64,000 nt of DNA from assembly GCF_024700885.2 (NCBI RefSeq), contig NZ_CP117016.1. One strand, 5' to 3'. Of the stretch, positions 3,922 through 4,752 are shown in pieces. The DNA is from Escherichia coli. GTDB taxonomy: Bacteria > Pseudomonadota > Gammaproteobacteria > Enterobacterales > Enterobacteriaceae. The notes under the pieces were generated by a model, which was not told the origin of the DNA, ran no database searches, and worked only from the letters and a program-made list of their open reading frames with translations. Within the stretch, counting starts at the first letter, position 1. Every line of letters starts with the position of its first letter. The position numbers were made by a program, and so were the translations under genes.

Positions 3922-4752
3922 ATGTTTGTTCCGTTTCTCATTATGTTGCGCGAAGGACTTGAAGCCGCGCTGATTGTCAGTTTGATTGCCAGCTATCTTA
4001 AGCGTACCCAGCGAGGCCGATGGATTGGTGTGATGTGGATTGGCGTGCTGTTTGCCGCTGCGTTGTGCCTGGGCTTGGGTATCTTCATTAACGAAACCAC
4101 CGGCGAATTTCCGCAAAAAGAACAGGAACTGTTTGAAGGTATCGTGGCGGTGATCGCCGTGGTGATCCTTACCTGGATGGTTTTCTGGATGCGCAAAGTG
4201 TCGCGCAACGTCAAAGTGCAACTGGAACAGGCAGTCGATAGCGCATTGCAGCGTGGAAATCATCATGGCTGGGCGCTGGTGATGATGGTCTTTTTTGCCG
4301 TTGCAAGGGAAGGGCTGGAGTCGGTCTTTTTCCTGCTGGCGGCATTTCAACAAGATGTCGGGATCTGGCCGCCGCTGGGTGCAATGCTCGGTCTTGCTAC
4401 AGCCGTGGTGCTCGGCTTCCTGCTCTACTGGGGCGGTATTCGCCTCAATCTTGGTGCATTTTTTAAATGGACCAGCCTGTTTATTCTCTTCGTCGCCGCA
4501 GGGCTGGCAGCTGGTGCTATTCGCGCATTTCATGAAGCCGGATTGTGGAACCACTTTCAGGAAATCGCCTTCGATATGAGCGCGGTGCTGTCAACTCACT
4601 CGCTGTTTGGCACGCTGATGGAAGGGATTTTTGGCTATCAGGAAGCGCCAAGTGTCAGCGAAGTCGCCGTCTGGTTTATTTATCTCATCCCGGCGCTGGT
4701 GGCATTTGCCCTGCCACCACGCGCAGGGGCGACAGCGTCTCGCTCCGCGTAG
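3922..4752 (+). CDS. efeU: Ferrous iron permease EfeU (FTR1 family), apparently intact
   Basis: MFVPFLIMLREGLEAALIVSLIASYLK.. with REGLE motifs (REGLEAAL, REGLESVF); ATG at 3922 inside ORF 3913..4752. Confidence 0.9.
   Translation: MFVPFLIMLREGLEAALIVSLIASYLKRTQRGRWIGVMWIGVLFAAALCLGLGIFINETTGEFPQKEQELFEGIVAVIAVVILTWMVFWMRKVSRNVKVQLEQAVDSALQRGNHHGWALVMMVFFAVAREGLESVFFLLAAFQQDVGIWPPLGAMLGLATAVVLGFLLYWGGIRLNLGAFFKWTSLFILFVAAGLAAGAIRAFHEAGLWNHFQEIAFDMSAVLSTHSLFGTLMEGIFGYQEAPSVSEVAVWFIYLIPALVAFALPPRAGATASRSA

Follow-up and report, generated by a model that had tools for sequence, protein, structure and literature searches.

The window analysed here, a stretch of 64,000 nt of Escherichia coli DNA, contains the genes efeU, efeO and efeB on one strand between putP and phoH, followed by the beginning of a large island (Table 1). 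The frame of efeU runs from its ATG to position 4752 without a single internal stop. In the six-frame list of ORFs the longest open frame begins slightly earlier, at a GTG (3913-4752, plus strand), with the ATG in frame at 3922, and this ATG is also the start used by RefSeq, which gives the gene the same coordinates in E. coli strains 1190 and MLI114 and names its protein, WP_000497935.1, ‘iron uptake transporter permease EfeU’. Antisense ORFs within efeU (e.g. 3907-4554, minus strand, 215 aa) were rejected as chance ORFs inside a conserved coding gene.

Table 1. Coordinates of the features discussed in the text (positions in the window)
Feature	Position	Strand	Remarks
447-aa hypothetical protein WP_001247486.1	1388-2731	-	within the 1242-3756 segment
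Fur-like box CGTAATGATAATCGATATC	3844-3862		15/19 match to consensus GATAATGATAATCATTATC; 60-78 bp upstream of the ATG
Fur 7-1-7 core TGATAATCGATATCA	3849-3863		12/14 match
CpxR-like box GCAAAGAAAAGTAAA	3870-3884	-	GTAAA-N5-GTAAA, one mismatch; between Fur-like box and start codon
Shine-Dalgarno-like purine-rich stretch AAGGGTGGGTGG	3909-3920	+	directly 5' of the ATG; read from sequence
efeU	3922-4752	+	uninterrupted ORF of 276 codons (276 aa); EfeU/Ftr1-type inner-membrane iron permease
First REGLE (REXXE) motif	3949-3963	+	aa 10-14; inside hydrophobic segment 1
GG doublet in codon 36 (GGT, Gly)	4027-4028	+	single G in K-12, the K-12 frameshift
Codon 44, TTT (Phe)	4051-4053	+	Leu in O157:H7 and repaired K-12 EfeU, the only aa difference (L44F); hydrophobic segment 2
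Second REGLE motif	4306-4320	+	aa 129-133; inside hydrophobic segment 4
efeO	4810-5937	+	375 aa; periplasmic cupredoxin plus imelysin (M75); starts 57 bp after efeU
efeB	5943-7214	+	423 aa; DyP-type haem peroxidase/deferrochelatase; 5 bp after efeO
Hairpin ATGCCCGAT...ATCGGGCAT	7226-7253	+	after the efeB stop; read from sequence
REP-like element	~7283-7318	+	3' of the hairpin after efeB; read from sequence
phoH	7537-8601		
Ysr251 match	8403-8596	-	antisense to the 3' end of phoH
DUF2726 gene	9163-9849		
Exact 98-nt direct repeats	9856-9953 and 10036-10133		after the DUF2726 gene
P4-type tyrosine integrase	10294-11496		after the 98-nt repeats; opens an island of >50 kb
1656-aa AAA-domain protein	19040-24010		island
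‘Enterotoxin’ gene	25923-27836	-	island
Decayed salmochelin locus	~40634-46456		island
iroD	43870-45099	-	intact
afa-like chaperone/usher/AfaD fimbrial cluster	~46932-50765		island

The identity of the product is clear from profile searches. EfeU scores 330.5 bits against the EfeU equivalog model NF041756 (curated cut-off 255), 349.9 bits against the EfeU/Ftr1 subfamily model TIGR00145 (cut-off 303.8) and 300.3 bits against Pfam FTR1 (PF03239; cut-off 25.3), the last match covering residues 1-275; all three extend over practically the entire protein. The earlier note on this DNA had claimed a full-length EfeU with two REGLE motifs, and both parts of that claim are borne out: the length and the scores are those of the complete protein, and the two motifs are in place. 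A Kyte-Doolittle scan with a 19-residue span, a count by hydropathy only, gives seven hydrophobic segments at approximately residues 1-24, 32-60, 68-94, 118-141, 146-175, 177-204 and 242-268. In this prediction the REGLE motifs fall in the first and the fourth segment, the layout expected of Ftr1-type permeases. EfeU therefore resembles yeast Ftr1p and the bacterial FTR1/OFeT family (PF03239, TIGR00145) in its full-length profile match, its seven-segment hydropathy and its two REXXE motifs. The partners of the bacterial permease are EfeO and EfeB, those of yeast Ftr1p being the Fet3p multicopper oxidase. A search of PDB sequences with EfeU returned no matches, so no solved structure of the family was found.

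The two genes that follow complete the tripartite EfeUOB layout of efeU and then full-length efeO and efeB on the same strand. EfeO matches NF007697 with 773 bits over residues 1-375 of 375, contains the Pfam domains Cupredoxin_1 and Peptidase_M75 and, besides an N-terminus that looks like a signal sequence, carries an HRLE (HxxE) motif at residue 217. EfeB scores 614 bits against TIGR01412, carries a twin-arginine (Tat) signal, SRRRLLK, at residues 13-19, matches PDB entries 2Y4F and 3O72 (YcdB/EfeB) at E ~1e-262, and retains D235 (in GFKDG), H329 and R347. Two or three residues of EfeO and eight of EfeB differ from the O157:H7 and K-12 proteins, none of them at the residues checked. Past efeB, the hairpin and the REP-like element likely mark the end of the operon; a canonical terminator with a T-tail was not found on the plus strand 3' of efeB. 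The sequence at 7213-7282 has no alignment to K-12 or O157:H7.

Upstream of efeU, homology to K-12 begins at position 3757, 165 bp 5' of the ATG, and both the Fur-like and the CpxR-like box fall within this 165-bp stretch common to K-12 and O157:H7. The Fur-like box that the earlier note had proposed ahead of the gene was recovered with a match that no more than two positions of the 64-kb window reach; core sites matching at 12/14 likewise number two, against 0.44 expected. In K-12 and O157:H7 the box differs by one base, GCTATC in place of the GATATC of the window. The CpxR-like box is weak when taken alone, there being nine such matches with one mismatch in the window against 5.7 expected, which is barely above chance. 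No sigma-70 promoter was found upstream of efeU by a consensus scan. A possible candidate was seen by eye, TTGTAT (3828-3833) and GATAAT (3850-3855) separated by a 16-nt spacer, the -35 hexamer having only 3/6 matches and the candidate -10 hexamer lying inside the Fur-like box. In the literature, efeU is listed as negatively regulated by CpxR, efeUOB is repressed at high pH via CpxR, and a Fur box at efeU of an extraintestinal pathogenic (ExPEC) strain has been detected computationally. The two predicted boxes make the sequence consistent with this published regulation, and the position of the putative CpxR-like box, between the Fur-like box and the start codon, would fit the published repression of efeU by CpxR.

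A 2.5-kb segment (1242-3756) between putP and efeU replaces ~376 bp of K-12 and is present in O157:H7 and in strain 1190. It encodes the hypothetical protein WP_001247486.1, the C-terminal half of which appears by eye to consist of three tandem repeats of ~60 aa (…Y[VA]K[LF]T…W…ARNYL…G…) and the only Pfam match of which, to the N-terminal domain of the secreted effector PipB2, is below threshold (E 0.0027, 18 bits versus a cut-off of 27). Between this gene and efeU is an AT-rich spacer of 1.2 kb without an annotated gene (GC 32-39% over 3001-4000), in which an Rfam scan of positions 1-11000 gave no match.

On the other side of the operon, the start of phoH is annotated in two ways, the longest ORF encoding 354 aa as in K-12 (1065 bp) and the RefSeq gene of MLI114 and strain 1190 being 789 bp (262 aa). 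Opposite the 3' end of phoH, Rfam finds Ysr251 (Yersinia sRNA 251, type antisense) with 192.8 bits versus a gathering score of 100. In the region 8645-11496, which comes after phoH, the window has a DUF2726 gene at the place where K-12 has pgaDC immediately behind phoH.

The DUF2726 gene is followed by the two 98-nt repeats, listed as 180 bp apart, each of which ends in TGGCGGTGAGGGGG, the 3' end of tRNA-Ser. Strain 1190 has at this site a third repeat unit and then an intact tRNA-Ser. ARAGORN found no tRNAs over the whole window, so the island lies at the tRNA-Ser attachment site, and the intact tRNA has to be beyond position 64000. For the contents of the island from 10294 to 64000 we relied on what RefSeq annotates in MLI114, whose sequence is identical. 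They include, besides the entries in Table 1, a malX PTS gene with a MalY-like gene, a cluster for ABC/TolC export and numerous fragments of IS elements; the ‘enterotoxin’ gene had no match in a Pfam search. In the salmochelin locus, according to the same annotation, frameshifts interrupt iroC, which is also truncated, and iroE, and iroN is cut short beside a copy of IS150. Thus, one iron-uptake system is pseudogenised in a strain with an intact efeUOB.

In K-12 MG1655, efeU is annotated as a pseudogene, b4490. It occupies the same place between putP and efeO and has ~98% nucleotide identity with efeU of the window, but it is one G short at 4027-4028, and the 2.5-kb upstream segment is absent from K-12. 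The earlier note had described the K-12 gene as frameshifted, and alignment to MG1655 agrees, placing a 1-bp deletion in codon 36; this missing G is the sole difference in length between the two genes, all others being substitutions. The K-12 frame consequently ends in ...RWIV and a stop, giving 36 residues, whereas in the window the GG is kept and the frame runs on to 4752, so that the gene is not the cryptic pseudogene of the K-12 type. A frameshift or premature stop, which would overturn the reading of an intact gene, is absent from 3922-4752. With the G restored, the K-12 protein has 276 aa and differs from EfeU of the window at residue 44 only.

Strain PV15-279 served as the O157:H7 comparator, the published experiments having used EDL933. 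Its EfeU (YcdN) is likewise of 276 aa with both REGLE motifs and is identical to that of the window at 275/276 residues, and the order and spacing of efeU, efeO and efeB are the same, as is the Fur-like box but for one base. The proteins differ by L44F in EfeU, by two residues in EfeO and by eight in EfeB. The change from Leu to Phe is, judged from the predicted segments, conservative and away from both REGLE motifs.

The distribution of the deletion was examined in a collection of 5,426 complete E. coli genomes. The efeU locus was found in 5,417 of these, nine having no match, and of the 5,419 places at which the efeU region matched, seven were on records labelled as plasmids. A K-12 50-mer spanning the deletion occurs exactly in 367 of the 5,426 genomes. 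Sixty of the 367, sampled evenly, all look like K-12 derivatives: they are laboratory strains (MG1655, W3110, DH10B, DH5alpha, MC4100, C600, J53, TOP10 and XL1-Blue), O16:H48 isolates, and genomes of 4.5-4.8 Mb, some of which are labelled as transconjugants or as strains from conjugation assays and the remainder of which are presumably K-12 recipients. The corresponding intact 51-mer is found exactly in 3,875 genomes, and a further 1,521, with K-12-type genomes among them, have 95-99% identity to it; in the non-K-12 genomes sampled among these 1,521 the difference is a substitution rather than an indel (recorded span 51 bp). The deletion is therefore a trait of the K-12 lineage. The intact reading at this site is the norm of the species, shared with the window strain by ~93% of complete E. 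coli genomes, and K-12 is the exception. At the level of at least 99% identity, the efeU locus is matched in 187 genomes. Over its whole length the window matches E. coli MLI114, isolated from stool in Mali, at 100% identity (NZ_CP117013.1, 3216397-3280396, reverse complement), and positions 1-10133 are 99.99% identical to the canine strain 1190.

Taken together, 3922-4752 is very probably the wild-type efeU allele at the head of a chromosomal efeUOB operon; it encodes an Ftr1-type permease, in a system that the loss of the G makes cryptic in K-12. EfeU is probably functional in this strain as well, a judgement made from its sequence. We infer transport activity for this strain because 275 of the 276 residues of EfeU are those of the O157:H7-type protein; the substrate and the regulation in this strain are likewise inferred. 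In the proposed mechanism, iron would cross the inner membrane by way of the REXXE motifs of EfeU, the REGLE motifs in membrane segments 1 and 4 being thought to bind and pass the metal. Going by publications on O157:H7 and Nissle 1917, its partners would be the periplasmic EfeO and the haem peroxidase EfeB, exported by the Tat pathway, and these two would see to binding and to the redox reactions in the periplasm. The system would take up ferrous iron when oxygen is present and both pH and iron are low, with oxidation probably at the periplasmic face, and the operon would be repressed by Fe-Fur and, at higher pH, by CpxR. The loss of one G from codon 36 leaves K-12 with an EfeU cut after 36 residues and hence with a cryptic system, the strain studied here having kept the G.

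That the frame is open merely by error, e.g. by an extra base at the GG doublet, has a negligible probability. One-base indels in short runs are a frequent error of assembly, but the same base is present in two independent complete assemblies, 3,875 complete genomes contain the intact 51-mer without a mismatch, and the resulting frame matches the EfeU models over their full length. It is also improbable that the ORF is intact and the permease nevertheless impaired or silent in this strain, through L44F, the base change in the Fur-like box or a defect elsewhere. L44F is the sole difference of EfeU from a functional O157:H7-type sequence, and the box is one base off those of K-12 and O157:H7. 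However, Leu to Phe is a conservative replacement in a hydrophobic segment, at a distance from the REGLE motifs; WP_000497935.1 is found in two unrelated isolates, one canine (Scotland) and one human (Mali); the 187 genomes matching the locus are unlike what would be expected of a decaying allele; and efeO and efeB are intact too. That the F44 allele and the GATATC variant of the box mark a sublineage with EfeUOB transport or iron regulation unlike that of O157:H7 is more doubtful still, and we consider it very improbable.

The main role of the operon may be other than the import of Fe2+ by EfeU, namely, the extraction of iron from haem by EfeB as a deferrochelatase, or the passage of Fe3+ through EfeU after oxidation by EfeO. 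Which form of iron crosses the membrane, Fe2+ or Fe3+, and whether EfeB takes iron from haem are debated in a review of the field. According to proposals that it reports, Fe3+ may be what EfeU carries once EfeO has oxidised the iron, and EfeB promotes the extraction of iron from haem in the periplasm even in K-12 with its broken EfeU; the haem-pocket residues are kept in the EfeB described here. Such proposals are refinements of one and the same system and leave the identity of the gene unchanged, and the ordinary reading fits both the REXXE model of Ftr1-type permeases and the Fe2+ uptake reported for O157:H7 and Nissle 1917. A main role of this other kind is therefore rather unlikely, and a wild-type efeU heading a ferrous iron importer is the preferred reading.

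The intact efeU of this strain was correctly read and is already known in kind, papers of 2006-2007 having reported both that the K-12 gene is defective and that the intact allele functions. The K-12 frameshift is attributed to Grosse et al. (2006), and the demonstration that EfeUOB of O157:H7 is functional, acid-induced and regulated by CpxAR to Cao et al. (2007), in each case as cited by other papers; papers citing these two also describe the MG1655 system as non-functional owing to the frameshift in efeU. An intact efeUOB ‘unlike K-12’ has been remarked on before for enteroaggregative E. coli (EAEC) 042 and for ExPEC PCN033, and the virulence of an efeOB mutant of PCN033 stayed at the wild-type level. 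The contrast with K-12 is not peculiar to the strain studied here. Its weight is small, as a reminder to be kept in mind when the iron physiology of K-12 is extrapolated to natural isolates.
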